From positions 91,417 to 155,416 of the forward strand of contig JAZDCZ010000407.1 of assembly GCA_036679605.1 (NCBI GenBank): a stretch of 64,000 nucleotides of DNA. Reading direction: 5' to 3'. Position numbers and translations under genes: made by a program. The notes under the pieces are model-generated. The model worked only from the letters and a program-made list of their open reading frames with translations. It was not told the origin of the DNA and searched no databases. Origin of the DNA: Gemmatimonadota bacterium (lineage in GTDB: Bacteria; Gemmatimonadota; Gemmatimonadetes; Gemmatimonadales; GWC2-71-9). Shown here piece by piece: positions 22,794 through 58,320 of this stretch (positions are counted from its first letter, which is position 1; every line of letters begins with the position of its first letter).

Positions 22794-23687
22794 ATGAGCA
22801 AATACCATCTCGCCGCCGTAGCTCTCACCAGACCCGCCGAGGAGGATTTGACCGCCGTCAGGGACGCCGTGGCGAAGGCCAAGAAATGGACATCGGACTC
22901 ATTGCGCCGTCTGGACATCCATGACACCGTCACTGTAAAGGTGAAACGGTTCGCTAAGTCGCCGAACTGGCTGGCCATGTACAGGTCGAATTCGCAGTTC
23001 GGCCGCAACCCTATATTCTGGATCAACGAGAACATCCTCGGCGTCCTGCGCGACGAGGATGTGTTGGACTCTGAGCTGCTCAAGGTGGTGTACGACAGTC
23101 TGCTGCACGAGTATGGCCATGTCGTATGGGAATGGGCCAGGACACGGGATTCTGAGACTTACGACATGCTGTTGAACGGCTTCTGGGATGACGAGGAGGA
23201 GTTCGCCGAGGGGTTCGTGCAGTTCGCGCTAAACGGCCTCGGAGAGAAGGGATATAGGCCAGTCGTCGAGGCGTTCGCCGAGAAGGTGTTCACCCCCGCC
23301 GCGTCCGCTGAGGGCGGCCTACTTCGGCTGGAGTGTCTCTGTGCGGACGACTTCGGTGCTAGGTACAAGGACGGCGACTTGACTGATGATGACGCAGCGC
23401 ACATCGAGAACTATGAGGAGACGCGGGCGGCGCAGCTCGCGATGGCCGAGGAGGCCCGGTCGCGAGGGATTGAATGTTATGTGTCGGACAGCGACGACAA
23501 GGACTCCCACCATTCCGATGCGTATATTTATTTCCCGTCCGGCCGCATGGCCGAGGTGGCGGAGATACTCGCCTCCGTCGGCCTCGATGGCGATGTGCTT
23601 GATGTGCCGGAGTGGTTCACCGACGAGAAACAGATATACGGCTGGATCGTGGAGAAGCATGAGAAGCCGGATTGGCACGGCGCTTGA
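22794..23687 (+). CDS. Putative zincin-type metallopeptidase domain protein
   Basis: LLHEYGH and EEEFAE motifs. Confidence 0.6.
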   Translation: MSKYHLAAVALTRPAEEDLTAVRDAVAKAKKWTSDSLRRLDIHDTVTVKVKRFAKSPNWLAMYRSNSQFGRNPIFWINENILGVLRDEDVLDSELLKVVYDSLLHEYGHVVWEWARTRDSETYDMLLNGFWDDEEEFAEGFVQFALNGLGEKGYRPVVEAFAEKVFTPAASAEGGLLRLECLCADDFGARYKDGDLTDDDAAHIENYEETRAAQLAMAEEARSRGIECYVSDSDDKDSHHSDAYIYFPSGRMAEVAEILASVGLDGDVLDVPEWFTDEKQIYGWIVEKHEKPDWHGA

Positions 23688-23712
23688 CTTTCGGTTCCGC
23701 GTATGCTATATT
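23684..23712 (+). promoter_or_regulatory. Sigma70-like promoter of tRNA cluster 1
   Basis: TTGACT-17 bp-TATATT with extended -10 TG. Confidence 0.75.
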
Positions 23713-23730
23713 AGAGTTGGAGAAAGTATT

Positions 23731-23796
23731 ATGTTGATGATCGCAGCAACCCGTGAACAAGAGCAGGCCGCCGAAGCGAGGGGGGTCTCCGGGTAA
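23731..23796 (+). CDS. Leader peptide of tRNA cluster 1 (MLMIAATREQEQAAEARGVSG)
   Basis: GGAG RBS; run GAA CAA GAG CAG GCC GCC GAA GCG matches downstream Glu/Gln/Ala tRNAs. Confidence 0.8.
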   Translation: MLMIAATREQEQAAEARGVSG

Positions 23797-23854
23797 GCTG
23801 CACTTACATGGCGAAGTGAACCAGCCCTGGAGACGCGAGTCTCGGGGCTTTTTT
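23785..23854 (+). terminator. Attenuator: antiterminator/terminator before tRNA cluster 1
   Basis: Terminator AGCCCTGGAGAC-GCGA-GTCTCGGGGC-T6; its 5' arm can instead pair with GTCTCCGGG/GCTG flanking the leader stop codon. Confidence 0.8.
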
Positions 23855-23859
23855 ATTGC

Positions 23860-23931
23860 GCCCCCATCGTCTAGTGGCTAGGACGCCAGTCCCTCAAGCT
23901 GGAAACACGGGTTCAAGTCCCGTTGGGAGCA
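23860..23931 (+). tRNA. tRNA-Glu(CTC)
   Basis: Cloverleaf; anticodon arm CCAGT-CCCTCAA-GCTGG; T-loop TTCAAGT. Confidence 0.9.
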
Positions 23932-23936
23932 TTTTC

Positions 23937-24009
23937 GGGGCCATATCTCAGTCGGGAGAGCGCTTCCTCGGCAAGGAAGAGGTCAAGGGTTCGAATCCCT
24001 TTGGTTCCA
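23937..24009 (+). tRNA. tRNA-Ala(GGC)
   Basis: GGGGCCA acceptor with G3:U70; CTTCC-TCGGCAA-GGAAG. Confidence 0.9.
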
Positions 24010-24013
24010 TTGT

Positions 24014-24179
24014 TGGGCCGTAGCAGAACGCCCAGTTAGGAGGTCAAGACAGAGCGACATCACGCGCGGACAGAGAGCGTAACAGAGGCACTGTGGCAAG
24101 CCGCCGGAGTGGTGGTGGGACACCTTCGGTGTGCTGCGCGCGGGACTCAGTGATTCGGGTTCAAGTCCCAGTGGTTCAG
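24014..24179 (+). ncRNA. 166-nt tRNA-like structured RNA with Gln-like acceptor stem and T-arm
   Basis: TGGGCCG/TGGTTCA+G ends, GGTTCAAGTCC T-arm, long non-canonical interior with UUCG hairpin. Confidence 0.5.
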
Positions 24180-24183
24180 TAGA

Positions 24184-24257
24184 GGGGTCGTAGCTCAACA
24201 CGGGAGAGTGCCTGCCTCGCAAGCAGGAGGTTGGCGGTTCGAGTCCGCCCGATTCCA
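24184..24257 (+). tRNA. tRNA-Ala(CGC)
   Basis: CCTGC-CTCGCAA-GCAGG; G3:U70. Confidence 0.9.
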
Positions 24258-24258
24258 T

Positions 24259-24330
24259 TGCCTTGTGGTGTAACTGGTAACACAGATGGCTTTGAACCAT
24301 CCGTTTCGGGTTCGAGTCCCGGTGAGGCAG
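24259..24330 (+). tRNA. tRNA-Gln(TTG)
   Basis: GATGG-CTTTGAA-CCATC; U1:A72, G73. Confidence 0.9.
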
Positions 24331-24332
24331 CA

Positions 24333-24403
24333 GCCCTTGTCGTCTAGCGGTAGGACAGCGCGCCTTCAACGCGCAAACGCCGGTTCGATTCCGGTCAAGG
24401 GCA
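24333..24403 (+). tRNA. tRNA-Glu(TTC)
   Basis: GCGCG-CCTTCAA-CGCGC. Confidence 0.9.
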
Positions 24404-24495
24404 TTCAGCCGAGCCACTGGTTATCGTCGGGTCATGGGTTGAAATCCTCGAACAGATAGCCATGCGACTGGTGCCATCCGGATTCGGCGCACAAA

Positions 24496-24519
24496 AAAGG
24501 CTGGCGCTAGCCAGCCTTT
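24496..24519. terminator. Probable bidirectional terminator
   Basis: AAAGGCTGGC/GCCAGCCTTT inverted repeat between convergent units. Confidence 0.7.
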
Positions 24520-24540
24520 CCTGTTTTTGCGATTCGGTGG

Positions 24541-24954
24541 TTAGGACAGGATTCCATACCGTTTGCCGCCGAGCTGCGACTTGATGCTTTTCGCATTTCG
24601 CTTTGAAATGATGTTGACTGCGAAGTGCCGACGTCCGTGACTTTTGCTGACGACCATCACATCGCCAGCCTTGGCGTTGGCGAGCGACACAAAGCCGCCA
24701 GTGAAGTGCGTTTCGTCGTCTCGTTGGAAGCCGCGAGAGTGTGCGATGACGGCCGCATCAACAGAGCCGACAAGGGTGCCGTTGCGCGACACATCAACCT
24801 TGACATTGGTCGCGGACGAGGGCAAAAGCGCGTAATTGGACACAACTGGTTGCGGTAGGATACCTTGGACGCTGAGCGGGATCAGTGGTCCGCCCTGATG
24901 CGAACCATTTGAGCCCACATCGGTTTGAGTGAGGATTTTTGCGAATTTCTTCAT
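24541..24954 (-). CDS. Stand-alone EcoRII N-terminal (B3-like) DNA-binding domain protein
   Basis: AGGAG RBS; KILTQTDVGSNGSHQGG resembles the EcoRII-N signature. Confidence 0.55.
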   Translation of the reverse strand: MKKFAKILTQTDVGSNGSHQGGPLIPLSVQGILPQPVVSNYALLPSSATNVKVDVSRNGTLVGSVDAAVIAHSRGFQRDDETHFTGGFVSLANAKAGDVMVVSKSHGRRHFAVNIISKRNAKSIKSQLGGKRYGILS

Positions 24955-25049
24955 TTCATTCTCCTTTTTTCTATCTGCCTGTCTGCCTGTCTGTTGGGCA
25001 CATGCCTTTGCACATATAGTTATATGCGCTCCGCAGGCGGAAGTCAACC

Positions 25050-26549
25050 TTAGAACTCAAAGAAAGCAAAGGCCGAGTGGAGGCCGAGCGCGGCCAGCGA
25101 CGCCCAGAATATAGTGAGTCCCACATCACGGCTGACACCCGTGTGTGATGGCTTAGCCCGCGAGCCGATGGCGTATCCCAAGGCCGCGATCAACAGCCCG
25201 CTACCCGCCGTCTTGAGCAGTACCCATCCAATCCCTTTCGGGAGGGTGTCTGTCCAGAGGGTGGCGAAATAGTTCCGCCGGAAGGCGGACACAGTGGCAC
25301 CGTCGGACGACAAAAGGAAGGCCACAAGGGACGCGTAACAGTTGGCCGCGAAGGCGATTAATGTCAGGATTGGTGCGGCGATTGCCATGGATAGCGATAT
25401 GTTGCCGTACAGGTAATGTCTAGGGTTAGCCCCAAGGTTGTGCATGGCGTCGAATTGGTGTGTCAATCGCCTAGTCCCGATATCTGCCGCTATGGACGCG
25501 CCACATTTGCCTGCGATCAATACACATATCAGCAAGGGAGCCACCACGCGGAACGCACTATACCCCGTCGCCGCGAGGAACTCCTCCATGACCAGCGGCA
25601 ATGTCATGTCCCTGTACGGCAGTTGCGAGAACCCGAAGAAGATTGTGACGAAGCCAGTGAGAGTTCCTGCGATGACGGCGTAGAGCGCGGTGTTCCCAAA
25701 GAGGACCATGCGCAGGTAGTGCAGGAGGTAGTGTACTTTCCATTGTGGTCGTGACCAGCCACGGAACGGTGCATTGGCGGCATCCAACAGCGTCAGTGCG
25801 ACTTCGCCAGGAGCCTCCACTATGGCTCGCATTTGTCCGCTAACTGCCACCACCCGTTGCTGTACCTCTTGCTCTTCCTCAGTTTGAGATCGGAAAAAGT
25901 CGTCCAGTTCCTGCGGAGTCACATCACGCAGCCGTTTTTCGGACGGATCCAGCAGTACTAATCTCGGCTGGTGGGGGATGAAGGCAGCGTAATCATGGCT
26001 CACCACGATGGTTGTTCGCCCTGAGTTTCGGTGTGTCCGTGATATCAAGTCTGCTACGGCTTTTGCCCGTTGTGGGTCGAGTCCAGTGGTTGGCTCATCG
26101 AACAGTAGGATATCTGGCTCCATGGCGAGTGTCCGAGCCAACGCGACTCGTTGTCGTTCGCCACCACTGAGGGTACCTGTCTTAGCATGAAGCGGCACGG
26201 ACATCTCGGCGAGCCGGCGTCTTGCTTCCCCTCCCTCCGCCTGTCTCTTCCGGTGGTCGATGGCGAATTGGACATTGTCGAGCGGGGAGAGTTCGTCGAA
26301 CAGCGCGAGTTTCTGAAAAACCACGCCGATCGTCGCATCATTTTTAGTGTGTATGTCGCCAGACACCTCCATATGGCTTGTCTGACGAGCCATGAGATTA
26401 AGCAGAGTGGACTTGCCGGATCCGCTCGGTCCAGCTAACACAATGAATTCTCCATCCTCCACGATCAGGTTTGCGCTCCGCAGCAGCGTTCGCCCTTCAG
26501 GTAGCGTGACAGACAGTGTATCGATGCTCAGTGCGGGTTGAAGCTTCAT
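25050..26549 (-). CDS. ABC ATPase fused to MlaE-like permease
   Basis: GPSGSGKS, LSGGERQR, LLFDEPT; C-terminal GASIAADIGT...DAMHNLGANP MlaE pattern. Confidence 0.85.
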   Translation of the reverse strand: MKLQPALSIDTLSVTLPEGRTLLRSANLIVEDGEFIVLAGPSGSGKSTLLNLMARQTSHMEVSGDIHTKNDATIGVVFQKLALFDELSPLDNVQFAIDHRKRQAEGGEARRRLAEMSVPLHAKTGTLSGGERQRVALARTLAMEPDILLFDEPTTGLDPQRAKAVADLISRTHRNSGRTTIVVSHDYAAFIPHQPRLVLLDPSEKRLRDVTPQELDDFFRSQTEEEQEVQQRVVAVSGQMRAIVEAPGEVALTLLDAANAPFRGWSRPQWKVHYLLHYLRMVLFGNTALYAVIAGTLTGFVTIFFGFSQLPYRDMTLPLVMEEFLAATGYSAFRVVAPLLICVLIAGKCGASIAADIGTRRLTHQFDAMHNLGANPRHYLYGNISLSMAIAAPILTLIAFAANCYASLVAFLLSSDGATVSAFRRNYFATLWTDTLPKGIGWVLLKTAGSGLLIAALGYAIGSRAKPSHTGVSRDVGLTIFWASLAALGLHSAFAFFEF

Positions 26550-27688
26550 TTGCCTGCCTTTTTCGCACGGAGAGTTACCCATGCCACATTGCGCCTCAAT
26601 GCGGTGGATCGTACTAGATGCACAATCTCCGGTCGAGTGACTCCGTTTTGGTCGAACATGACCGTCGATAGTATACTTTTCAGCGTCGGACCGAGCAATT
26701 CTATGGTGTGGTACATCTCCTGCCGTACATGCGGATCATCGATGAGCCTCTCCCGCAGGAAGTCGGCGGTGTGCGAGTTCTTGGCCATCGTTTCACGGTA
26801 GATGTCCGAAAGGAGTAGTTGAATCTGCTTATCGTCGCGCAGCCGCTGGAGAATTCCGCCCAGACGAGTTCTGAGTTCCTCGTCCTGCCGTGCCATGTCC
26901 CAAGTCTCATGCAACGCCTCGCGCAGTTCGTGTCGGTCGTCCTCCGGCATGTCAGATATCCAATCGCCGAGCCAGTCCAACATTAGTTCGTATGCGGCGC
27001 TGTAATTTCCCCGTACTATATTCCAAACAATCTGTGTTTTAGGAGCGTCGGCCAAAGCGTTGCTAGCAAGACGGCTCAAAGTGGGTGTCAGGTGTTCCTG
27101 GAGTATTGGACGCAGTCGCTGCTGTATCAGCGGCCAATCCTCGCCTAAGCGATCCAGATGTTTTTGGCTTATGGTTTGCATATCCCCGCTGTGGTTTCGT
27201 ATTACCGCTCCAAACTCTTCACTGACCAGACCGATGTATGCCATAGCCAAGCCGCCCGCGATTGGTTTCCAAATTTCCGTGAGTTCGGTGCCATTATCGC
27301 GCCATGCCAGCGAGATGTGGTCGGCCACGCGCTTTCGTATGGCGGGTGGCAGCAAGGCGGACACGGTTTCCTCCGCCGACATCGGCGTCTGCCAGCAGGT
27401 CGCCAATGTGTTGGATAGGTCGCCCAACCTCTGATCGACGGACAAAGCGATTGTGTCCCAGTGGACGGCACCTACTTCCCCGATGCGTCGCAGGCCATTC
27501 TCTGTGTCTAGGAACACAACATCCCCTGGAGAGATATTGTGTTCCCTCGGGGCAGGTATATGGAGTTCGCTTGTCGGTCTCAGCATGCGTCGGCATACAA
27601 TATATGCCGATCCGACTGCCCCCGACCCCGCTGAAAGCCACAGGACAGCTCCGAGGATTAGATGGATATTGCGGCTACCGCTGTGCAT
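26546..27688 (-). CDS. Membrane-anchored protein, possibly MlaD/MCE-like partner
   Basis: N-terminal TM, PGDVVF...IGEV, helical remainder; overlaps ABC gene. Confidence 0.55.
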   Translation of the reverse strand: MHSGSRNIHLILGAVLWLSAGSGAVGSAYIVCRRMLRPTSELHIPAPREHNISPGDVVFLDTENGLRRIGEVGAVHWDTIALSVDQRLGDLSNTLATCWQTPMSAEETVSALLPPAIRKRVADHISLAWRDNGTELTEIWKPIAGGLAMAYIGLVSEEFGAVIRNHSGDMQTISQKHLDRLGEDWPLIQQRLRPILQEHLTPTLSRLASNALADAPKTQIVWNIVRGNYSAAYELMLDWLGDWISDMPEDDRHELREALHETWDMARQDEELRTRLGGILQRLRDDKQIQLLLSDIYRETMAKNSHTADFLRERLIDDPHVRQEMYHTIELLGPTLKSILSTVMFDQNGVTRPEIVHLVRSTALRRNVAWVTLRAKKAGK

Positions 27689-27992: not shown

Positions 27993-27993
27993 G

Positions 27994-31054: not shown

Positions 31055-31058
31055 AGAC

Positions 31059-31121: not shown

Positions 31122-31165
31122 GACGATAATCCGGCTCATTTATAGCTGGGTACGATGGTTTGGTT

Positions 31166-31221
31166 CGGGCCGACGCGGACGGGTTATCTGGTAATGACTC
31201 CCGTCCGCACAAACTTGCCCG
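31166..31221 (+). ncRNA. Y-RNA-like unit 2
   Basis: CGGGCCGA...GGTTA...CACAAACTTGCCCG; inner stem GCGGACGGG/CCCGTCCGC. Confidence 0.65.
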
Positions 31222-31333
31222 CCCCAGTCTTGCGATGCTTTGTCTCGGCGATTACTTGCCGAACAGAGGCTTCTGTGGCCGGAGCGGTTTGCCGCCTCGG
31301 CTTTTTTTGTGCGGACAGAGAAGGAGAATGGAG

Positions 31334-32929
31334 ATGGATTACTCAAAGCATGTGGCGGACAAGACCCCGCAGTCTGAGCCGATCATTGGTCGCGAGGCGG
31401 ACATGGCCAAAAATAGCGCCGGCGGGTTCTCGTTCGAGCTAGACAAATGGACGCAGCTCGAGAGGTTTCTCGTGTTGGGTACTGAGGGTGGAACATTCTA
31501 CACAGGCGAGCGGAAGCTGACCCGGGAAAACATGTCCGTGATCTTGATCTGCGCGAAGGAGGATGGCCCGCGCGCCGTCGCTACCATTGTCAGGTTCCGC
31601 AGGGAGAACCGTGCGCCGAAGGTGAACACACTGCTCTTCGCGCTGGCGGTCTGCGCCAAGATGGCTGGCAAAGAGTCCGCCACGGCGGCCAACGCGGCCG
31701 TCACAGAGGTTTGCAGCACGGCGACGCACTTGTTTGGGTTCCTAAAGTATGTCAAAGCCCTCGGAGGCACTGGTTCTGGCACCCGCCGGGCAGTTGCCCG
31801 CTGGTACAACTCTCGTGAGCCAGTAAACTTGGCGTACCAGGTCGCGAAATACCGCAGCAGGGAAGGTTGGACGCACAGGGATGTCCTGCGCGTGGCGCAT
31901 GTTGTCCCAGAGACCGACGCCCACAACGATGTCCTCGCGTTCGCGGCTGGCAAGGCCGGGGCTGATCCGGAGAAGGCACATATGGAGATTCTTCGAGCGG
32001 CGGAGATCGCGGCTGGCGCGACCACGCCGGACGAGGTGATCTCTCTCATCCACGACTTCAGGTTGCCGTGGGAGTGCATCCCGTCGGACCTAATGAAGTC
32101 GCCGGAGGTCAATGAAGCATTGCTTCAGAACATGCCGATGACGGCCACGGTGCGACAGCTCGGCAGGATGACGGCCCTAGGGCTGCTCGGGCCGATGTCG
32201 GACACCGCGAATCTCGTCATCGAGAGGCTTTTGAACGCCGACGCGGTGAGGAAGTCGCGGATGCACCCGATCCAGGTGCTGGCGGCTTTGTCCACCTACT
32301 CCAATGGTGAGGGGGCTAGGGGATCCCTTAGCTGGAACCCGAACCAGTCGATTGTGGACGCCCTCGACGGGGCGTTCTATGCGTCCTTCGGGAATGTGGA
32401 GCCGACGGGCAAGAGGACATACCTTGCCCTCGACGCGTCCGGCTCGATGGGCTGGGGCGACATCGCGGGCATCCCTGGGCTGACCCCAGCCAAGGCGACG
32501 GCGGCGATGTGTATGGTCACCGCTCGCACCGAGGCCAAGGGCAGCTTCCATGTGGCGGCCTTCTCGGACGAGATGATCCCGGTGGCGATCACGCCGAACC
32601 AGCGGCTGGACACCGCGATGAGGATTATCGCCGATGTCAACTGGGGCGGCACAGACTGTGCCCAGCCGATGCTCGACGCCCTTGAGAACGGGATCGAGGC
32701 GGACACATTCGTGATTTACACCGACGGGGAGACTTGGGCGGGTGCTGTCCACCCGTGCGAGGCACTCAGAAGATACCGCAGGGAGACGGGTATCCCAGCC
32801 AAGCTGGTCGTGGTTGGTATGACCTCGACGGGATTCACGATTGCGGATCCAAAGGACGCTGGAACACTGGATGTTGTCGGATTCGATTCGGCTGCCCCAC
32901 AGGTCATATCGGACTTCGCTAGGGCGTAA
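31334..32929 (+). CDS. Ro60/Rsr TROVE-vWA RNA-binding protein
   Basis: NSAGGF, RFLVLGTEGGTFY, KYRSREGWTHRDVLR, MPMTATVRQLG, MIDAS DASGSM, GGTDC, DVVGFDS. Confidence 0.95.
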   Translation: MDYSKHVADKTPQSEPIIGREADMAKNSAGGFSFELDKWTQLERFLVLGTEGGTFYTGERKLTRENMSVILICAKEDGPRAVATIVRFRRENRAPKVNTLLFALAVCAKMAGKESATAANAAVTEVCSTATHLFGFLKYVKALGGTGSGTRRAVARWYNSREPVNLAYQVAKYRSREGWTHRDVLRVAHVVPETDAHNDVLAFAAGKAGADPEKAHMEILRAAEIAAGATTPDEVISLIHDFRLPWECIPSDLMKSPEVNEALLQNMPMTATVRQLGRMTALGLLGPMSDTANLVIERLLNADAVRKSRMHPIQVLAALSTYSNGEGARGSLSWNPNQSIVDALDGAFYASFGNVEPTGKRTYLALDASGSMGWGDIAGIPGLTPAKATAAMCMVTARTEAKGSFHVAAFSDEMIPVAITPNQRLDTAMRIIADVNWGGTDCAQPMLDALENGIEADTFVIYTDGETWAGAVHPCEALRRYRRETGIPAKLVVVGMTSTGFTIADPKDAGTLDVVGFDSAAPQVISDFARA

Positions 32930-38696: not shown

Positions 38697-38793
38697 CCTG
38701 CCTTGACCGATGTGTATGTCCGATATCCAAACACAATCAAGTCAGGCAGTTAGATATAGACCTTGTTTTCTTTTACCCGGAGAGTGTACTCCG

Positions 38794-39462
38794 ATGGCCG
38801 ATAAGTCAATAGATGGGTTTATAGCAATCCGTATGCCAGTAGTCGTCCGGAAACGTTTGGAGTCCGTATCCAAGGTTCTCCGAGACATTGGGGTCACTGG
38901 GGAGTGGCAGGAGGAGGGTACCCATCATCTCACTCTGAAGTATATTGGCAAGATCGAGTCCGAGAAGTACGACGAAATTGCAGAGGCTTTGCGGGAGCCG
39001 TGCAGGGGCCTGTCCCTCCCTATTTTCACTGTTGGCCCTCTGTTCACTTTTGAGGCTCATGACGGCAATATGGTATTGGCGGCTCGTGTGACGCCTAAGA
39101 ATGACCTAGAGAGGCTATTCAGGGTATTGGAGAGGGTGGCGGTGGAGAACGGTGCCGAGAAGTCGAAGTTCCCTTCGTTCAAACCGCATATCACATTGTG
39201 CTATTTGGATAACAAAGATGATTGGAAGCGTGCGAAGACTGAGATGAATCTGCCGGATGAGTTCGGCGAGCTAACAATCCTCACCGTGCCGCTCAATGAA
39301 TCCAAGGCAGAGGGACAGGATTTCAGGATCAGACGGACGGTTAGGGTTGGTCGCCGCCAAGCTTTTCATGATATTTGGGCGGCCATAACCCCAGCGCACG
39401 CGGAGACCACTGAGGCCACATGCCAGCACTGCGACCGGAACCCTCTTGAACGAGTGGGATGA
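38794..39462 (+). CDS. 2H phosphoesterase (ThpR/LigT, 2',3'-cyclic phosphodiesterase family)
   Basis: HHLTLKYIG and FKPHITL motifs. Confidence 0.85.
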   Translation: MADKSIDGFIAIRMPVVVRKRLESVSKVLRDIGVTGEWQEEGTHHLTLKYIGKIESEKYDEIAEALREPCRGLSLPIFTVGPLFTFEAHDGNMVLAARVTPKNDLERLFRVLERVAVENGAEKSKFPSFKPHITLCYLDNKDDWKRAKTEMNLPDEFGELTILTVPLNESKAEGQDFRIRRTVRVGRRQAFHDIWAAITPAHAETTEATCQHCDRNPLERVG

Positions 39463-39677: not shown

Positions 39678-39984
39678 AATCGCATTCATTCTGGCTGCTG
39701 GGTTCATTTTCGGCGGATATATAGATTCACGGTTTCAGGGCGGTTATGGCGGCTTCTGTTTTGGAATGATGCCTGGAGCCGTCGGGTTGGCCATGGCGAT
39801 GTTGGCATTCGCCGCTTGGTCAATCCACGCATCAAGACCGTGGTCTTGGATTCTCGCGTACATATCCTGCACCGCGTCCGTCGGGATGGTGTCGTTGCTC
39901 GGCGCGGAGTGGCTCGCCGGGTTCGCGAAGAAATCTCTAGGAAGTGCTTGTTTTCTGGTTGGCCGCGTGCTATACTGGAATTGA
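39655..39984 (+). CDS. Small membrane protein
   Basis: Three hydrophobic segments. Confidence 0.5.
   Translation: MRTIMLIEIAFILAAGFIFGGYIDSRFQGGYGGFCFGMMPGAVGLAMAMLAFAAWSIHASRPWSWILAYISCTASVGMVSLLGAEWLAGFAKKSLGSACFLVGRVLYWN
39948..39976 (+). promoter_or_regulatory. Sigma70-like promoter of tRNA cluster 2
   Basis: TTGTTT-17 bp-TATACT with extended -10 TG. Confidence 0.65.
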
Positions 39985-40028
39985 GGTAATCGCCCTTCGC
40001 GGGGTGTGGATATAAACAGGTAAATGAG

Positions 40029-40091
40029 ATGATGAACTTAACGCTAAGCCCATGGTTACTCCCATATCTGCCCGAGGAGGGTGTCACCTAA
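40029..40091 (+). CDS. Leader peptide of tRNA cluster 2 (MMNLTLSPWLLPYLPEEGVT)
   Basis: Run CCA TGG TTA CTC CCA TAT CTG CCC plus upstream TTA and CTA; matches Leu/Pro/Trp/Tyr tRNAs. Confidence 0.8.
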   Translation: MMNLTLSPWLLPYLPEEGVT

Positions 40092-40152
40092 GCTGCGCGT
40101 ACATTTTGCGTTTCGCAGCCCCGGTGACCAAGAGGTCATCGGGGCTTTTTTT
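40083..40152 (+). terminator. Attenuator: antiterminator/terminator before tRNA cluster 2
   Basis: AGCCCCGGTGACC-AAGA-GGTCATCGGGGC-T7; 5' arm can instead pair with GTCACC/GCTGCG flanking the leader stop codon. Confidence 0.8.
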
Positions 40153-40285
40153 GTGGACATGGAGCGGACGTGTCCCGTTGGGTTCAAATCCCGCCGTCCG
40201 TATATTGAAGAGAGAGAGAGATATTAAGGGAGATAAGGCGGCAGGCGTCAGAGGCTCGTTCCCGGCACCGCACACTCTCCTCTTT

Positions 40286-40368
40286 GGCCTTGTGGTGAAA
40301 CGGCAGACACGGCCCGCTTAAACTGGGCTGCCCGCGAGGGCGTGAGGGTTCGAATCCCTCCGAGGCTA
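40286..40368 (+). tRNA. tRNA-Leu(TAA)
   Basis: Long variable arm, loop CTTAAAA, one bulged base in the anticodon stem. Confidence 0.75.
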
Positions 40369-40376
40369 TTGTGAAG

Positions 40377-40446
40377 GGTCCTGTGACGGAATTTGGTAGA
40401 TGTAGTCGCATAAGCGGCTGCCTGAAAGGGTGTGGGGGTTCAAGAC
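40377..40446 (+). pseudogene. Degenerate tRNA-Leu-like gene
   Basis: Leu-type D-arm and variable arm, truncated anticodon loop, 3' end lost. Confidence 0.5.
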
Positions 40447-40497
40447 TATTGAACGCGGGTAGCCCAATCCACTCCGCGCAGTGATAATTTTGTAGAT

Positions 40498-40568
40498 AGG
40501 TCGTTGGTCTAGTGGTAGGGCGTTGGTCTCCAAAACCAAAGACGAGGGTTCGATTCCTTCACGACCTG
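40498..40568 (+). tRNA. tRNA-Trp(CCA)
   Basis: TTGGT-CTCCAAA-ACCAA. Confidence 0.9.
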
Positions 40569-40593
40569 TTCGGCGCTTTTGACAACCGGAGAC

Positions 40594-40678
40594 GCGCGGA
40601 TGACGCAATTGGCGACGTGGCAGGCTTAGAACCTGCTGGGGTTTGTCCCCGTTGCGGGTTCGAATCCCGCTCCGCGCA
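40594..40678 (+). tRNA. tRNA-Leu(TAG)
   Basis: GCAGG-CTTAGAA-CCTGC, long variable arm. Confidence 0.9.
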
Positions 40679-40689
40679 TTGTTGGTATG

Positions 40690-40772
40690 GGGTAGGTGGC
40701 AGAGTGGCGATTGCGTCTGGCTGTAAACCAGATGTCCTTTGGACTTCGGGGGTTCGAGTCCCTCCCTGCCCA
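40690..40772 (+). tRNA. tRNA-Tyr(GTA)
   Basis: TCTGG-CTGTAAA-CCAGA, long variable arm. Confidence 0.9.
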
Positions 40773-40820
40773 TATTGCATTCAGTGAAGAGAATGATAGG
40801 GTATGGGTAGAAGAGAATGA

Positions 40821-40894
40821 CAGGGTATGGGCTAGTCTGGTAAGTCGTCCGCTCCGGAAGCGGAAGAACGTCGGTTCGAATCCGACTACCCTGA
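40821..40894 (+). tRNA. tRNA-Pro(CGG)
   Basis: C1:G72; TCCGC-TCCGGAA-GCGGA. Confidence 0.85.
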
Positions 40895-40897
40895 ATA

Positions 40898-40971
40898 CAG
40901 GATGTGGGCCAGTCTGGCAGGTCGCCTCGTCTGGAGCGAGGAAAACGCCGGTTCGAATCCGGCCATCCTGA
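40898..40971 (+). tRNA. tRNA-Pro(TGG)
   Basis: C1:G72; CCTCG-TCTGGAG-CGAGG. Confidence 0.85.
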
Positions 40972-41057
40972 TTACAGGGTATGCGGTTCGGGAACTCGCA
41001 TTTGCACTTTTATCGGTTTAGGCATTTTGTGGTGTCTTGCGGCTATTGTCTGCGGTC

Positions 41058-41258
41058 ATGGAACCTGACCCAAAATGCCCACAGTGCCGCGGCACAGGCA
41101 GGATTGAGCTTTTCACCTCGGTCATCGCCTGCGAATGTCGGTTCTTCCTGATCGGCACCAAAGACGCCCTGATGAGGCCACCGCGAGCGAGCGTGCCTCT
41201 AGTCTCGCCGGATGACGACTGGTGGCAGGCGTTCAACGACCACGGCAACGGCGACTGA
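41058..41258 (+). CDS. Small zinc-finger-like protein
   Basis: CPQCRGTG...CEC. Confidence 0.45.
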   Translation: MEPDPKCPQCRGTGRIELFTSVIACECRFFLIGTKDALMRPPRASVPLVSPDDDWWQAFNDHGNGD

Positions 41259-49990: not shown

Positions 49991-51019
49991 ATGTTGAAGA
50001 TGCTGACAGGCTTTGTGGCCAAGGTGCTCCGGCTGGGAGCCGTGGAATCGGAGACTTTGCCCGATGCCGGATTCAATGGCGGCGTGTGCCGTGAACAATA
50101 TCGCGCTGAGACGAGTGGCGATGGTTGGAAATCTGAATGGATAGAGGATGGTCGGCTCACCGACTCCTGCATGTTGGACTGGTTGAACCACCGTAGCAAA
50201 GGTCTAGTGGCGTTCCGTTGGTCCACAACCAACAGGGGTTGGCGGCTCATGGAGGTTCCGGCAGATTATCTCGGATCGTTCCAGGTGGCTTCGCGGCAGT
50301 CCATTCCTCCGTCACGGGATGTCCGCAAGGCGATCTCTGATTTTATGTCGGAATCGCAGTTGCCAACGGACACTGAGATGCTCGACTGGTTGGATTGGCA
50401 GTCCGGTTCCTACACAGGGCAGGTCATCTGGCGGATGTCGGAGTCCGGACATGGATGGCGCCTGCACGAGACATCCCGCGACGGAGCCAAAACGACCGTG
50501 CGGGCGGCCATATCCTGTGCCATACAGGGGGAGCTGACCGTTACTGACCCTCTCGCCGCTAGTGCGGCCCAGCCATCGCGCATGTACCGCATAACACAGC
50601 GCGGGCCGAAGGCTTTTGAGTGCGCCCTGCTGGCTCAGGGCGGATTCGAGAGATGGAAGAAGGCAACATTGGAGGCCGCCGTGAAGTCGGTCATCCGGGG
50701 AGCCACTGCCATCAACCACGCATCCATCACCCGCGACAATATCAGCATTCAATTGAAGGACGACGAGGAGCTCAAAGTCAGACTGTCGGACGATGCCTCT
50801 GTCAACGCGGCTCTCTGTCTGAAGTGCGGTGGACTTGCCATAAGTTGGAGCAGGCACGAGTGCGACTGCGGACTCATCGCGGTGGATGACGACAGAGATT
50901 GTGGCCGTAGGGGAAGCATGAATGACATAGGAGAAGTGCCGACTAGGGGGATGCTCGAGAATTTGGCTGCGCTGCCAGCGAAGGACAGAGTCGCGGAGTG
51001 GAGGCACCAGTCATCATGA
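49991..51019 (+). CDS. Hypothetical protein with duplicated TDxxMLDWL...GWRLxE domain
   Basis: GGAG RBS; internal repeat; C-terminal CxxC...CxC. Confidence 0.65.
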   Translation: MLKMLTGFVAKVLRLGAVESETLPDAGFNGGVCREQYRAETSGDGWKSEWIEDGRLTDSCMLDWLNHRSKGLVAFRWSTTNRGWRLMEVPADYLGSFQVASRQSIPPSRDVRKAISDFMSESQLPTDTEMLDWLDWQSGSYTGQVIWRMSESGHGWRLHETSRDGAKTTVRAAISCAIQGELTVTDPLAASAAQPSRMYRITQRGPKAFECALLAQGGFERWKKATLEAAVKSVIRGATAINHASITRDNISIQLKDDEELKVRLSDDASVNAALCLKCGGLAISWSRHECDCGLIAVDDDRDCGRRGSMNDIGEVPTRGMLENLAALPAKDRVAEWRHQSS

Positions 51020-51630: not shown

Positions 51631-51631
51631 T

Positions 51632-52272: not shown

Positions 52273-52339
52273 TTGACTCATATTTACTCCTGCCTTATAA
52301 TCGCTGGTAATCGTGGATCGCAAACAAGGAGAGTTCCCC

Positions 52340-54265: not shown

Positions 54266-54348
54266 GCAAGTGACCATCGCCGCATAACCAGTTCTATCCT
54301 CCTTGACGAATGGGCAGCAGTTGCCTAGAATTGACATAGGATCGGATA

Positions 54349-54564: not shown

Positions 54565-54652
54565 ATCACTTGAGGATGGGATCCCTGTCCTCTGTGGTCA
54601 TGCCCTATTTTTTTGAAAGGACGGCGAGCGGCGGATTATCCCCGCTCACATT

Positions 54653-55327
54653 ATGAAGAGATTACTTGGTTTTATGTGGCGTCGTCTGTTCCTGTCCAAC
54701 TTCGTGTCGGGGATACTCCTGCTCCTGCCCATAGCCCTGACAGGGTTGCTGATGGCATGGGCTGGCGGCAAAATTGTAGCCGCAGTCGGCCCGAACACTG
54801 CTATAGGGGCTTTCTTGCAAGACATCGGATTGCGGTTTGTGGCGAATCCGTCTGTCGCCGCCGTAATTGGTTGGCTTCTGGTGCTAGCATGCGTGTGGTT
54901 TATCGGCCTAGGTGCGAAGCTTGGTGCCAAATCGGGAGCCAGAAGTCTCATTGATGACATGATGTCTGGGTTGGATCGCATACCGGCGTTTGGGACAGTC
55001 CATAAGTCAGTGAAGCAAGTGGTGTCCATGTTCAATGGTGGCTCGTCACAGTTGAAGGCCATGAAGGTGGTGATGTGTCGTATAGGAGAGGGAGCCGGAG
55101 TCCTGTCGTTGTTGACCTCGCCGCAGGTGTACGAGTTCAGAGGCATAAAGTATAACTTAATCTTCATGCCCAGCGCCCCTATGCCGATGACTGGGGGGAT
55201 ATTGTTCGTCCCAGTCGAGGCGGTCGAGATCGTGGACATGGCGGTGGACGACATGATTCGGGTGTGCATTTCGCTCGGGATGCTTGCCCCGCAGGCTGTC
55301 CCAGAGATGCATCTCGTTGGGGTATAA
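54653..55327 (+). CDS. DUF502 family membrane protein
   Basis: FVSGILLLLPIALT, RIPAFGTVHKSVKQ, FMPSAPMPMTGG, ISLG. Confidence 0.8.
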   Translation: MKRLLGFMWRRLFLSNFVSGILLLLPIALTGLLMAWAGGKIVAAVGPNTAIGAFLQDIGLRFVANPSVAAVIGWLLVLACVWFIGLGAKLGAKSGARSLIDDMMSGLDRIPAFGTVHKSVKQVVSMFNGGSSQLKAMKVVMCRIGEGAGVLSLLTSPQVYEFRGIKYNLIFMPSAPMPMTGGILFVPVEAVEIVDMAVDDMIRVCISLGMLAPQAVPEMHLVGV

Positions 55328-55491
55328 GTTGGTTTGTCATGGATGGTCACAGCTCTTCTGGCGACGCCGCTTCCGTGGGAAGCAAGACTGTTCGCCGTCT
55401 TAGCTTTCGGGCTTGCGGTGTCAGGCGTGAATATATTGGTGTTGGCCTGTTTTGTCGTGATCGACAGGCTTGATTTGTAAGGAGGTTTGTT

Positions 55492-56667
55492 GTGAAGCTA
55501 TCTATCATGATCTTTTTGTTGGCCGTCACTGGTTGCGGCGTACAGTCATTGCTAGCGCCGTTGAGTGCCTCGGCCGACGCAGGGAAAGACGCCACGGTAG
55601 CACCGTTCGACACGGTCGTGTTGGACGGCTCGGCGTCGATGGGTCTTGAATTCATTTGGGAGCAAGTGTCTGGGCCAGTCGTGGAATTACTCGACGCTGG
55701 CAGCGCAGTGGCTGTGTTTGACGCGCCTAGTTCTGGCGTGCTGGTGTTCACGCTAACCGTGTCCCTAGGTAGTTCGTCGGATTTCGATGTAGTAACCGTC
55801 GTCGTCGAGGAGATTGGACAGTGCCTCTTCGATCAGGGCGACGGGATGACGCATCTGCTGATTCTGGATTGGACCGGCGATGACCAAGCATCGCCGTATG
55901 GCTTCGGCCCAGATGTTCCGGTTCCACCTTTCGATTTTGGCAGCCATTCCCTCCCTAATGGCGGCTCCTTAGCTGACGATTCCGACAGATTTATGGCGGA
56001 TGTGCTGGCGAAGGTGGCCATTGACATAGGCATGATATCGGTGCTGCCGCGCAATCACTTGCCTGCGGAGAAGCTCCTAGTGTTGAACGGGGAGTACGAT
56101 TCGGGGGACACATCTGGAAAAACTGTCATGTTCATTACGGAATGGCAGGAGCCGGACAATCCACTCGTCTTGGGTAGAGCTGTGTTCGACTCATCGGATA
56201 AGAGGTGGGACGATGGGGGATTCGTGTACGGCGAGACCTTCTCCCTTATAGCGATCGAGTCGCCGACATATAAGCAGTATGTGAACGCGTTCGCTGATGT
56301 CGCCATACACGAGATTGGACACACATTGGGTTTTGGTCACAGCGAGGACTCCGCTGTTCCGTCTGGAGCCGATCCGCGGCTGGGCATCATGCGGGGTACT
56401 CGCGAGGCTGTATGGTTCCTTCGGGATCAAGTGTGGCTGGTGGATCAGATGACATGGCAGGAGACGGATTTCTTCTTAGGTTGCGGTAGATGGGAGATGG
56501 ATCCAGCCATAACCTTCTTGGACGAAATCGGGTCCGATAAGGCTCAGAGTACGCAGATACTTGGCGATTTGCGGTGCGGCCTGTTTGGTGGGCGGCCATT
56601 TGAATCGACCGAGGCGAATGAGGCGGTCGTGAATCTGCCGGATTCCGCATCAGGAATCCAACCTTGA
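55492..56667 (+). CDS. Lipoprotein with PKD-like domain and metzincin-type metallopeptidase
   Basis: AAGGAGG RBS, lipobox VTGC, ADAGKD...VLDGSAS...WEQVSGP, HEIGHTLGFGH with downstream Met. Confidence 0.75.
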   Translation: MKLSIMIFLLAVTGCGVQSLLAPLSASADAGKDATVAPFDTVVLDGSASMGLEFIWEQVSGPVVELLDAGSAVAVFDAPSSGVLVFTLTVSLGSSSDFDVVTVVVEEIGQCLFDQGDGMTHLLILDWTGDDQASPYGFGPDVPVPPFDFGSHSLPNGGSLADDSDRFMADVLAKVAIDIGMISVLPRNHLPAEKLLVLNGEYDSGDTSGKTVMFITEWQEPDNPLVLGRAVFDSSDKRWDDGGFVYGETFSLIAIESPTYKQYVNAFADVAIHEIGHTLGFGHSEDSAVPSGADPRLGIMRGTREAVWFLRDQVWLVDQMTWQETDFFLGCGRWEMDPAITFLDEIGSDKAQSTQILGDLRCGLFGGRPFESTEANEAVVNLPDSASGIQP

Positions 56668-56775
56668 TTTTCGTCATGTCGATGCGAATAATAGGTTGGC
56701 AGGGCTGGTCGTTTATCAGGCCGACGGACTGGCTTACGGCTCAGCTCCGCGAGATTTCTTTTGGAGGATATGATA

Positions 56776-57381
56776 ATGGGACTGTTCAAGAGCGCTGAGG
56801 AAAGGCGTATCGAGAGGGACATCAAGGTAAAACAGGGTATTCGCCGTATCGAGAAGTCCATCCGCGAACAGGCGAAGTTCCAAGATGAGTTCATTAGGAA
56901 TGCCAGGGACGCCAAAAGGGTCGGCGACACAGCCCAGTATGCCTTCGTCCGCAGCTCTCTGAAGAAAACTGCGGCCATACATAGGATGCTGGAGAGGCAA
57001 TTGTTTGTCATCAGGAATGCCCTTCTTGTCAAACGTCAGGCCGAGGCCTCATCTGATTTCGCGTCTAGTATGGGCGTGATGTCCTCCGAGATCAGCCGCC
57101 TTTTCGGTGAGACCGACCTTACGAGAACACAAGGTGCTTGGGAAAAGGCCATGGCACAGTCACAGAGCATGGAAGAGAGGATGACCATCTTTCTGGAGAA
57201 CATCGAGGGAACGACGGCGCAGGACATAGAGAGCGTTGATGAGACCATTAGCGATGAGGAGGTGGACACGATGATCGAGGCAGAGGAGCGGGCGGAGAAA
57301 CAGTACGAGTTGGACAGGAACGCGGCGCTCCGAGCGGAGCTCGACGCGTTGGGTGGCGAGAAGGTCACTACTAACAAGTAG
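56776..57381 (+). CDS. Snf7/ESCRT-III/PspA-superfamily-like coiled-coil protein
   Basis: MGLF start, basic helical hairpin, acidic C-terminal half (ISDEEVDTMIEAE). Confidence 0.55.
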   Translation: MGLFKSAEERRIERDIKVKQGIRRIEKSIREQAKFQDEFIRNARDAKRVGDTAQYAFVRSSLKKTAAIHRMLERQLFVIRNALLVKRQAEASSDFASSMGVMSSEISRLFGETDLTRTQGAWEKAMAQSQSMEERMTIFLENIEGTTAQDIESVDETISDEEVDTMIEAEERAEKQYELDRNAALRAELDALGGEKVTTNK

Positions 57382-57413
57382 AAACTTGTGGAAACACTTT
57401 TAGGAGAAAAGCT

Positions 57414-57674
57414 ATGAATGACGAAACCTTTCAGAGGAAATTGGCGAGTTTGATTGCCGAGATAGGTACTGTGAGCGATTTAGGCGCTCGCGATAGACTT
57501 GTGCGGATTGCGGAGCAGACCAAGACGAAACATGCCGAATTGAAGAAGACGGTCGGCCAACTTCAGGAGAGCATCGATTTCGTTCGGCTATCCATTAAGT
57601 ACATGGTGTTCGATTTGGAGGCCACGCGTCGGGAGAATGTGCAGCTAAGAAAGATGCTCGAGGACTCGAACTAA
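57414..57674 (+). CDS. Small coiled-coil protein
   Basis: AGGAG RBS; LQESIDFVRLSIKYMVFDLEATRREN, a motif I recall from Planctomycetota proteins (unverified). Confidence 0.7.
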   Translation: MNDETFQRKLASLIAEIGTVSDLGARDRLVRIAEQTKTKHAELKKTVGQLQESIDFVRLSIKYMVFDLEATRRENVQLRKMLEDSN

Positions 57675-57675
57675 T

Positions 57676-57749
57676 TAGGCCGCCTCGGACTCGAACCGAG
57701 AACCTCATCTTTAGGAGAGATGCGCTCTAATCCATTGAGCTAGCGGCCT
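57676..57749 (-). tRNA. tRNA-Arg(CCT)
   Basis: CATCT-CTCCTAA-AGATG on minus strand. Confidence 0.9.
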
Positions 57750-57750
57750 G

Positions 57751-57826
57751 CCAAATGAGGCAGGATTTGAACCTGCGACCCCGCCTTCGGAGGGTGACGC
57801 TTTGTCCGAACTAAGCTAACGGCTCC
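57751..57826 (-). tRNA. tRNA-Arg(CCG), acceptor stem degenerate (possible pseudogene)
   Basis: Loop CTCCGAA, intact T-arm, 3' acceptor strand does not pair. Confidence 0.55.
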
Positions 57827-57828
57827 AA

Positions 57829-57902
57829 TGTCCCCGGGAGGATTTGAACCTCCAACCCTCGGCTTAGAAGGCCGCTGCGCTGATCCATTGCGCCACGGGG
57901 AC
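57829..57902 (-). tRNA. tRNA-Arg(TCT)
   Basis: CGGC-CTTCTAA-GCCG. Confidence 0.9.
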
Positions 57903-57909
57903 GGCAAAT

Positions 57910-57950
57910 ATAGACTAGGCAGGAATCGAACCTGCGACTTCATTCTTTCC
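57910..57950 (-). pseudogene. 3'-half tRNA remnant
   Basis: GTCGCAGGTTCGATTCCTGCCTAGTCTA, T-arm and acceptor strand only. Confidence 0.55.
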
Positions 57951-57953
57951 TAA

Positions 57954-58027
57954 TGAGCCTGACAGGAATCGAACCCGCAACACCCCGGTTAAAAGCCGGA
58001 CGCTCTACCAAATTGAGCTACAGACCC
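57954..58027 (-). tRNA. tRNA-Lys(TTT)
   Basis: TCCGG-CTTTTAA-CCGGG. Confidence 0.9.
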
Positions 58028-58095
58028 CGCTAACTGTCCTAACCCGAACCAAGTTCCCCGTCGTTCACGGGTATTAAATGCCGCTTGGATTCAAA

Positions 58096-58168
58096 TGGGT
58101 CTAGCTGGTTTCGAACCAGCGGTCTTCCGGTTAAGAGCCGGACGCTCTGCCTACTGAGCTATAGACCC
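58096..58168 (-). tRNA. tRNA-Lys(CTT)
   Basis: TCCGG-CTCTTAA-CCGGA. Confidence 0.9.
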
Positions 58169-58192
58169 TAAAATGTTTTGTGTGTGTTGAAA

Positions 58193-58282
58193 CTAACGCT
58201 TCAACCGGCGCGGTCTTCGCCCGCCGGATATCAGAGGCCGAGACGGCCTCAAACGTTTATCGAGATGGAATTGCGTGTTCAT
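58193..58282 (-). CDS. Leader peptide of tRNA cluster 3 (MNTQFHLDKRLRPSRPLISGGRRPRRLKR)
   Basis: Contains AAA, AAG and all six Arg codons; lies between promoter and Lys/Arg tRNAs. Confidence 0.7.
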   Translation of the reverse strand: MNTQFHLDKRLRPSRPLISGGRRPRRLKR

Positions 58283-58291
58283 ACTAGAACA

Positions 58292-58320
58292 GGTGTATCG
58301 CGCAGGAATCCGAATGTCAA
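58292..58320 (-). promoter_or_regulatory. Sigma70-like promoter of tRNA cluster 3
   Basis: TTGACA-17 bp-TACACC on minus strand. Confidence 0.65.

Follow-up and report, generated by a model that had tools for sequence, protein, structure and literature searches.

The DNA analyzed here is a 64,000-nucleotide stretch (hereafter the window) of an assembly assigned to a Gemmatimonadota bacterium (GCA_036679605.1), and our subject is a set of tRNA operons that probably stand under the control of small, codon-matched leader-peptide attenuators. The window is the final 64 kb of contig JAZDCZ010000407.1 (C343; 155,416 bp, GC 0.556), one of 434 contigs in an assembly of 6.72 Mb (GC 0.583); positions refer to the window unless given as contig positions. 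ARAGORN finds 15 tRNA genes in the window, and these form the three amino-acid-themed clusters that a sequence-only reading of the same DNA had described. Cluster 1 (23860–24403, plus strand) comprises Glu(CUC), Ala(GGC), Ala(CGC), Gln(UUG) and a tRNA with the anticodon UCA; cluster 2 (40285–40971, plus strand) comprises Leu(UAA), Trp(CCA), Leu(UAG), Tyr(GUA), Pro(CGG) and Pro(UGG); and cluster 3 (57676–58168, minus strand) comprises Lys(CUU), Lys(UUU), Arg(UCU), a degenerate Arg(CCG)-like gene and Arg(CCU). Clusters 1 and 2 were identified with both ARAGORN and Rfam, and cluster 3 with the two combined. A fourth cluster, with the tRNAs Thr, Thr, Gly, Gly, Asn, Asn, Met and Thr, lies outside the window on the same contig (contig 60648–61513, minus strand).

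Each cluster in the window stands behind a promoter-like site and a short open reading frame (ORF), the order that the sequence-only reading had given with ORFs of 20–29 amino acids; the three ORFs have 21, 20 and 29 codons. The unit of promoter, leader ORF and following RNA structures is called a module and numbered after its cluster; the leader ORFs are denoted L1–L4, and the candidate attenuators of modules 1, 2 and 4 are denoted att1, att2 and att4. In module 1, promoter P1 (23684..23712, plus strand) reads TTGACT-17-TATATT with a TG extension, was matched by the promoter scanner at 10/12 positions, and overlaps with its -35 hexamer the stop codon of the preceding gene. Promoter P2 of module 2 (39948..39976, plus strand), TTGTTT-17-TATACT, was read by eye; P1 and P2 have in common TGCTATA[CT]T, a motif with 3 matches on the contig. 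Leader ORF 1 (23731..23796, plus strand; 21 codons and TAA) encodes MLMIAATREQEQAAEARGVSG, with GGAG positioned 8 nt before the ATG, and its codons 9–16 read E Q E Q A A E A (Glu/Gln/Ala). Leader ORF 2 (40029..40091, plus strand; 20 codons and TAA) encodes MMNLTLSPWLLPYLPEEGVT, of which codons 8–15 read P W L L P Y L P (Pro/Trp/Leu/Tyr). As had been claimed, both runs of 8 own-cluster codons finish 5 codons ahead of the stop, and both leaders run into a shared switch motif, TAAGCTGC...CAGCCC.GG.GAC...GTC..CGGGGC-Tn, whose TAAGCTGC part includes the TAA. We found no second promoter-like site on the coding strand between terminator and tRNA genes in modules 1 and 2.

Cluster 4, which had not been available to the sequence-only reading, carries the same module, as that reading would predict for a further tRNA cluster. 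Module 4 (contig 61,700–61,520, minus strand) has a promoter, TTGACT-17-TACACT (P4), directly upstream of the cluster; a leader of 28 codons, MQTSASTFRNDMAGTTNNGTRGRRCVLG, with GGUGA before the ATG; and a TAAGCT junction followed by an inner hairpin and the terminator AGCCCCGGAGAC-GAAA-GUCUUCGGGGCU-U6. L1, L2 and L4 all stop at TAA, and each of these modules holds a single ORF ending at the conserved TAAGCT.

The leaders are rich in codons for the amino acids of their own clusters. With the start codon excluded, own-cluster codons make up 10/20 in L1, 10/19 in L2, 10/28 in L3 and 13/27 in L4, so that the ten matching codons previously counted in each of the first three leaders are recovered and the unseen fourth leader follows the rule with Thr/Gly/Asn/Met codons, 7 of them consecutive. 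When every leader is scored against clusters 1, 2, 3 and 4, L1 (20 codons) gives 10, 1, 2 and 4; L2 (19 codons) gives 2, 10, 0 and 5; L3 (28 codons) gives 1, 7, 10 and 4; and L4 (27 codons) gives 3, 1, 4 and 13. The own cluster is thus the top score for 4/4 leaders, and the off-diagonal values range from 0 to 7, in keeping with the earlier statement that cross-matches are few; the highest comes from 7 Leu/Pro codons in L3, which correspond to amino acids of cluster 2.

Binomial tests against the protein composition of the contig give p values of 8.0e-4 (L1), 5.4e-4 (L2), 6.9e-4 (L3) and 9.8e-4 (L4), with a Fisher combined p of 1.3e-9. As an empirical null we used ATG-initiated ORFs of 15–40 codons, 857 from the contig and 11,522 from the assembly contigs longer than 100 kb. 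An own-cluster fraction at least equal to that of the leader occurs in 0 (L1), 2 (L2), 11 (L3) and 0 (L4) of the 857 ORFs, and in 4, 21, 210 and 16, respectively, of the 11,522; a run of own-cluster codons at least as long occurs in 0, 4, 4369 and 2 of the 11,522. The codon theme of modules 1, 2 and 4 is therefore far outside chance, and that of module 3 is marginal.

Downstream of the leaders of modules 1, 2 and 4, two alternative RNA structures are predicted. The terminators are GC-rich stems of 11–13 bp with U6–7 tracts, which begin 25–26 nt past the stop codon and lie 3–130 nt ahead of the first tRNA: the att1 terminator (23823..23856, plus strand) has an 11-bp stem and U6 (-17.1 kcal/mol) and ends 3 nt before tRNA-Glu; the att2 terminator (40117..40153, plus strand) has a 13-bp stem and U7 (-26.1 kcal/mol); and in att4 the terminator has a folding energy of -23.5 kcal/mol and a U-tract that finishes ~6 nt before the first tRNA. 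The antiterminators, with RNAfold energies of -22.7 kcal/mol for att1 (23785..23834, plus strand) and -21.6 kcal/mol for att2 (40083..40129, plus strand) and an energy of -14.5 kcal/mol for att4, are nested. Their inner hairpin starts at the first base after the UAA, and the AGC at the end of its 3' strand is at the same time the beginning of the terminator stem; in the outer helix, the last two or three sense codons pair with the remainder of the terminator 5' arm. In att1 the last three sense codons (GUCUCCGGG) and the inner hairpin directly after the UAA pair in this way with the terminator 5' arm, in att2 the last two codons, GUCACC, form with GGUGAC in the terminator 5' arm a helix that encloses the inner hairpin GCUGCG...CGCAGC, and in att4 the outer-helix strand in the last leader codons is GUC.UCGG. 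The inner hairpins alone contribute -6.7 (att1), -10.6 (att2) and -7.4 kcal/mol (att4).

The position of a ribosome on the leader influences these folds in silico. We folded the transcript as it stands before the terminator 3' arm exists, with 28 nt masked around each A-site codon. With the A site at codons 1–15, the terminator 5' arm is paired with a probability of 0.9–1.0 in att1 and 0.6–0.74 in att2; from codon 16 to the stop, pairing falls to 0.26–0.66 in both, and the boundary coincides with the end of the 8-codon runs. Att4 forms an extra, strong 1:2 hairpin between GGCCGGGAC and GUCCUCGGCU; the pairing of its terminator 5' arm is maximal with the A site at codons 15–21, on the Thr-Thr-Asn-Asn-Gly-Thr run (0.65–0.82 at 6/7 codons and 0.55 at codon 17), and a ribosome on the last codons frees the terminator arm.

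Comparison of the paralogues points in the same direction. The switch segments of att1, att2 and att4, taken from the stop codon to the U-tract, are 74–76% identical pairwise (maximum of 200 shuffles, 0.65–0.66), and the leader ORFs of the same modules are 51–62% identical, not above their shuffle maxima of 0.54–0.62. A search of the whole 6.72-Mb assembly for the switch motif gives 3 matches, all on this contig and all immediately ahead of a tRNA cluster. In each of the three modules the stop codon has a constant position with respect to the inner hairpin. The terminator 5' arm GGAGAC of att1 and att4 is GGUGAC in att2, and this A to U change is compensated twice: in the terminator 3' arm (GUCUC in att1, GUCAU in att2) and in the last leader codons (GUCUCC in att1, GUCACC in att2). 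The inner helix GCUG:CAGC has become GCUU:AAGC in att4 (G-C to U-A). In the structural alignment, the outer antiterminator helix of att2 lies in a different register. Covariation of one nucleotide with two alternative partners is expected of a two-state switch.

We consider it likely that modules 1, 2 and 4 are ribosome-mediated (class I, leader-peptide) transcription attenuators that gate tRNA operons, and that the element probably makes each tRNA set only when ribosomes read the matching codons slowly. The three modules combine the attributes of this class: a short promoter-near ORF, themed codons, an intrinsic terminator and an exclusive antiterminator, the last in silico only. Anatomy, codon statistics, alternative folds, their dependence on ribosome position in silico and the pattern of paralogue conservation are computed results. 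The leaders are presumably translated and the terminators presumably functional, and the signal would be the supply of usable tRNA rather than of amino acids. In the proposed mechanism, transcription would begin at the sigma-70-type promoter and the leader of 20–28 codons would be translated. The last two or three sense codons, the UAA and the next bases would form the 5' half of the antiterminator, which would sequester the 5' arm of the strong intrinsic terminator. A ribosome that reaches the stop would cover the 5' half of the antiterminator, so that the terminator forms and the tRNA genes stay silent; a ribosome stalled in the 7–8-codon run would let the antiterminator persist and RNA polymerase enter the tRNA genes. 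The new tRNAs would speed the decoding of the sensor codons and close the loop, and each amino-acid-themed tRNA operon would thereby possess a supply sensor of its own.

A more specific version of this mechanism is a multi-channel detector of tRNA loss, in which each operon would sense failed decoding of its 2–4 amino acids and switch on only the matching replacement tRNAs. We regard this version as tentative and, on balance, unlikely. If true, it would provide a selective answer to host anticodon nucleases or to a mismatched host tRNA pool, with the operon off again after decoding recovers. Cleavage of host tRNAs as the trigger, which the sequence-only reading had put forward, is speculation, and nothing in the window shows a defense context.

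Several observations weigh against the attenuator interpretation. The first concerns the codon match itself. Under simple wobble rules, the tRNAs of the own cluster read 6/20 codons of L1, 8/19 of L2, 4/28 of L3 and 12/27 of L4, and this anticodon-level match is equaled by 19 (L1), 3 (L2), 66 (L3) and 2 (L4) of the 857 null ORFs on the contig. Of the 10 themed codons in each of the first three leaders, own tRNAs read 6 (L1), 8 (L2) and 4 (L3): L1 contains two GAA and two GCA codons for which cluster 1 offers no cognate tRNA, so that the gated tRNAs could not rescue a ribosome waiting there, and six CGN codons of L3 are unread by the tRNAs of cluster 3. The leader-cluster match is thus mainly a match at the level of the amino-acid family, where it is clearer than at the anticodon level, and the earlier description of leaders built from codons that their own tRNAs read holds by amino acid and only in part by anticodon. 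Part of the gap may exist because tRNA genes have been lost, since Arg(CCG)-like, Arg(GCG)-like and other tRNA-like fragments remain in the clusters.

The folding calculations provide further points on the same side. When the full terminator is included and the fold is computed at equilibrium, the terminator prevails in att2 and att4 wherever the ribosome stands (P 0.95–0.98), and the model therefore needs kinetic, co-transcriptional control; trp attenuation is likewise kinetic. In att1 and att2 the antiterminator forms without any ribosome, and therefore any failure of translation, not just codon-specific stalling, would give read-through. Among the sequence signals, P2 was not called by the promoter scanner, the Shine-Dalgarno sequence of L2 is weak (AGGU), and module 3 has no intrinsic terminator: three hairpins are followed there by a C/A-rich stretch. 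No RNA run was found to contain the stretch, and the one sequencing run that does contain it is probably that of the source sample.

The conservation evidence, finally, appears confined to the three paralogues on one contig. The pattern TAAGCT..GCCCYGG..CGGGGCTTTTT retrieved 16 loci from IMG/VR, 0 with a tRNA, and at least 120 stretches from GTDB genome contigs; among the 80 of these loci whose DNA was examined, 2/80 have any tRNA. The only one of the 80 with a tRNA directly after the terminator (L045) was rejected as a relative, given its AT-rich context and 2-codon ORF. The flanking proteins encoded at 22794–23684 and 38710–39459 have no relative in IMG/VR. A search of the protein collection with the 297-aa flanking protein gave 8 relatives, of which 4 are full-length (77–85% identity), and GTDB genomes gave none. 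In one 77%-identical relative with DNA, the -35 of P1 is conserved, and the contig ends 15 nt past the gene and 10 nt past the -35; a 33%-identical locus of the flanking protein contains no tRNA. When 60 genomes related to that of the host (the unpublished G015 among them) were searched with a 1.2-kb DNA query, only the tRNAs matched, and blastn of cluster 1 against 50,697 phage records likewise matched only tRNA segments.

The formation of the antiterminator in att1 and att2 without a ribosome, or with a ribosome before codon 16, is what a general sensor of translation status would exhibit. Here the terminator would form only on completion of the leader, any block in the leader would give read-through, and the operons would report overall ribosome or translation capacity (early versus late infection, host shut-off, ribosome-targeting stress), with codon content secondary; the merely partial anticodon-level match fits such a sensor as well. 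We nevertheless judge it improbable, as it leaves unexplained both the enrichment of own-cluster amino acids in 4/4 leaders and the siting of the 7–8-codon runs exactly where stalling keeps the antiterminator free. The excess of the amino-acid match over the anticodon match (10/20 versus 6/20 in L1; 10/28 versus 4/28 in L3) and the use of several synonymous codons in the leaders would suit a sensor of amino-acid starvation, in which stalling reports uncharged tRNA and tRNA output is raised in starvation or the stringent response. The output of such a sensor would be mismatched to its input, since extra tRNA cannot relieve a lack of amino acids, and the gap between the two levels of matching may partly stem from the decayed Arg(CCG)-like and Arg(GCG)-like genes; this explanation appears to us quite improbable. 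We give very little credence to the absence of any regulation, with hairpins that are ordinary terminators or insulators, ORFs that are untranslated chance frames and tRNAs expressed via processive antitermination or unrecognized promoters: leader translation and termination are predictions from sequence, the element encodes a NusG-domain protein (5065–5676), and module 3 works, if at all, without a terminator, but the combined chance of the codon enrichment is ~1e-9, the runs are equaled in 0–4 of 11,522 null ORFs, the stop codon position is fixed relative to the inner hairpin in three modules, and a three-way covariation joins the leader end, the terminator 5' arm and the terminator 3' arm.

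The attenuator interpretation, which we retain for modules 1, 2 and 4, does not extend to the Lys/Arg module. The sequence-only reading had proposed stalling attenuators with sensor codons matching the gated tRNAs for all three clusters of the window; this is supported for clusters 1 and 2 and for the unseen cluster 4, and not supported for cluster 3, where the terminator is missing and the codon enrichment is marginal. The promoter-like site P3 (58292..58320, minus strand), TTGACA-17-TACACC, was not called by the promoter scanner, and its -10 hexamer TACACC is without the final T. P3 and P4 share GCGCGATACAC, and their common motif GCGATACAC has only 2 matches on the 155-kb contig, both of them these promoters, which suggests that P3 is paralogous to the promoter of module 4. 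The leader-like ORF 3 (58193..58282, minus strand) has 29 codons and TAG, encodes MNTQFHLDKRLRPSRPLISGGRRPRRLKR and includes 10 Lys/Arg codons; it has no Shine-Dalgarno sequence and would have to be nearly leaderless. Its enrichment corresponds to p ~0.018 (210/11,522 null ORFs), with a longest run of 2. We read the module as a copy that has degenerated or decayed or is wired differently, and it is not to be counted as an attenuator.

Individual tRNA genes show further peculiarities. The fifth tRNA of cluster 1 (24333–24403, plus strand; 71 nt, Rfam 62.3 bits) has the anticodon UCA, is labeled 'SeC' by ARAGORN, and is a potential UGA suppressor. The degenerate gene of cluster 3 (57756–57825, minus strand) is detected by Rfam alone (38.6 bits), with CCG (Arg) as the anticodon in the model alignment; its acceptor stem lacks 4 pairs, and two CGG codons occur in leader 3. 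In cluster 4, the first tRNA behind the attenuator (contig 61444–61513, minus strand) is Tyr(GUA) according to ARAGORN and GGU (Thr) in the Rfam register, where it has a C at position 33 and a shortened D-arm; if it is a Thr tRNA, it would suit the theme of the cluster and would read the ACC codon of leader 4. Cluster 4 also holds a sub-threshold Arg(GCG)-like gene (24.9 bits). A 174-nt gap inside cluster 1 (24010–24183, plus strand), called neither by ARAGORN nor by Rfam, resembles a tRNA at its 5' start and a T-arm at its 3' end. The two ends fail to pair into a single acceptor stem, and the stretch may be a decayed or interrupted tRNA. Just past the terminator of module 2 (40154–40204, plus strand) lies a tRNA-like minihelix with a 7-bp acceptor-like stem and a T-arm, without D or anticodon arm; a second degenerate tRNA-like stretch (40380–40470, plus strand) lies between Leu(UAA) and Trp. 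Truncated tRNA-like pieces are also present in clusters 3 and 4.

Two other tRNA loci were compared with the modules. Upstream of a lone tRNA-Met at contig position 50015 are a terminator and a 70-codon ORF whose codons show no theme. On contig C173, a cluster of 8 tRNAs (160674–161640; Ala, Gly, Met, Val, Arg, Pro) has neither leader nor terminator; repeated GGGCGGTA-like motifs fill its spacers, and the cluster contains two near-duplicate truncated 5' halves of tRNA-Met.

The identity of the element was approached through a protein scan of 116 ORFs against PHROGs and 96 ORFs against Pfam. The sequence-only reading had taken the DNA for that of a phage, which the scan does not establish: no capsid, portal or terminase family matched among the 116 ORFs. 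Two apparent structural matches were discarded, a 'head maturation protease' that is an S49 peptidase and 'tail fiber' matches that are collagen repeats. Among the products encoded on the contig are chaperones and proteases (DnaK, DnaJ, FtsH, M16 peptidases); transcription, translation and RNA factors (IF3, RNase E/G, NusG-like, RNase HII, RuvB, Ro60, LigT-like, Topo VI-B-like); the metabolic enzymes glutamine synthetase and glutamate dehydrogenase; and also seven DNA methyltransferases, IS605-type transposases and one protein of 3415 aa. Deoxyhypusine synthase and MgtC also belong to this gene set, which as a whole would be atypical of a phage; the contig is open at both ends. A Terminase_6N match sits on another contig of the assembly (C71), and HK97 capsid Pfam families have no match anywhere in the assembly. 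The content is compatible with a huge phage or another large extrachromosomal element, and phage identity is unproven.

Several neighboring genes relate to RNA. Immediately ahead of module 2 stands a gene for a phosphoesterase of the LigT / 2'-5' RNA ligase superfamily (38710–39459, plus strand), and elsewhere in the window a small P-loop kinase gene (17996–18418, plus strand) matches AAA_33 and, weakly, a polynucleotide-kinase PHROG; together the two could be RNA-repair functions. A Ro60/TROVE gene with a vWA domain is located at 31160–32926 (plus strand). Sub-threshold matches to the Y RNA-like family YrlA overlap tRNA genes in clusters 1 and 4 (23.6–27.7 bits, gathering score 69; in cluster 1 at 24279–24389, plus strand), and these weak matches probably reflect tRNA-likeness only. 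The contig gives no sign of an alternative genetic code in a test of ORF coverage with each stop read as sense: coverage is 0.858 with the standard code and 0.874–0.884 with TGA, TAG or TAA as sense (TGA 0.884), and TGA is the commonest stop (58 of 146 greedy ORFs). In crude ORF sets, codon usage of the element relative to the remaining assembly is mixed, with AAA, AAG, AGA, AGG, CCA, ACA and TTA enriched 1.3–2.2-fold in the element and most other cognate codons at a ratio of ~1.

The known control of tRNA genes in bacteria and phages acts at promoters and through processing, and leader-peptide attenuation is known for amino-acid biosynthesis and for one synthetase operon. A full-text literature search, judged by titles and the openings of abstracts, returned no description of leader-peptide or attenuator control of tRNA genes, and codon-matched attenuation of tRNA operons appears to be unpublished as far as that search extends. 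If the attenuator interpretation is true, a translated sensor of decoding speed that gates the genes of the decoders themselves would represent a novel form of feedback on the translation apparatus, and it would explain why the tRNA genes of the element are grouped by amino acid. The four re-coded paralogues in one element constitute a natural specificity experiment, with the same switch and different sensor codons and outputs, and the system offers a direct test of whether mobile-element tRNAs respond to tRNA shortage or to tRNA-cleaving defenses. At ~130 nt the module is small, and in other settings it could serve as a codon-specific reporter of tRNA availability.

Among known systems, tRNAs carried by phages serve as a counter to tRNA-targeting defenses (PrrC, VapC-like, PARIS). 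The present element resembles these cases in that a mobile element brings its own tRNA sets, with the LigT-like phosphoesterase gene directly upstream of module 2; the reports concern the tRNAs themselves, and we know of no leader-peptide sensor described for their transcription. T-box riboswitches bind uncharged tRNA directly and need no ribosome or ORF. They are similar to the modules in that the choice between terminator and antiterminator is set by the state of specific tRNAs and translation-related genes are controlled, and no T-box match from Rfam was found in the window or in the leader regions of modules 1 and 2. The pheST leader (pheM) attenuator controls phenylalanyl-tRNA synthetase and is likewise a leader-peptide attenuator that governs a component of the translation apparatus via the decoding of cognate codons; it differs in that a synthetase gene is gated and one amino acid sensed, whereas here tRNA genes would be gated and 3–4 amino acids sensed per operon.

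The closest likeness is to the attenuators of amino-acid operons. Leader peptides that respond to more than one amino acid are known from E. coli thrL (Thr and Ile) and ilvL (Ile/Val/Leu), and the group also includes trpL, hisL, leuL and pheL. No Rfam leader family (Thr_leader, His_leader, Leu_leader, Trp_leader, Phe_leader and others) reaches its gathering score in the window, and none matches at E <= 1 in 23650–24600 or 39900–41100. The modules share with these attenuators: (i) a short promoter-proximal ORF with a regulatory codon run for several amino acids; (ii) alternative 1:2, 2:3 and 3:4 pairings, with the leader end and stop in region 2 and a GC-rich terminator with a U-tract; and (iii) a terminator more stable than the antiterminator, so that control must be kinetic. 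They differ in that tRNAs rather than enzymes would be regulated, that the input would be tRNA supply and the product would feed back directly on the sensor, and that one element holds several parallel copies, each re-coded for another set of tRNAs.

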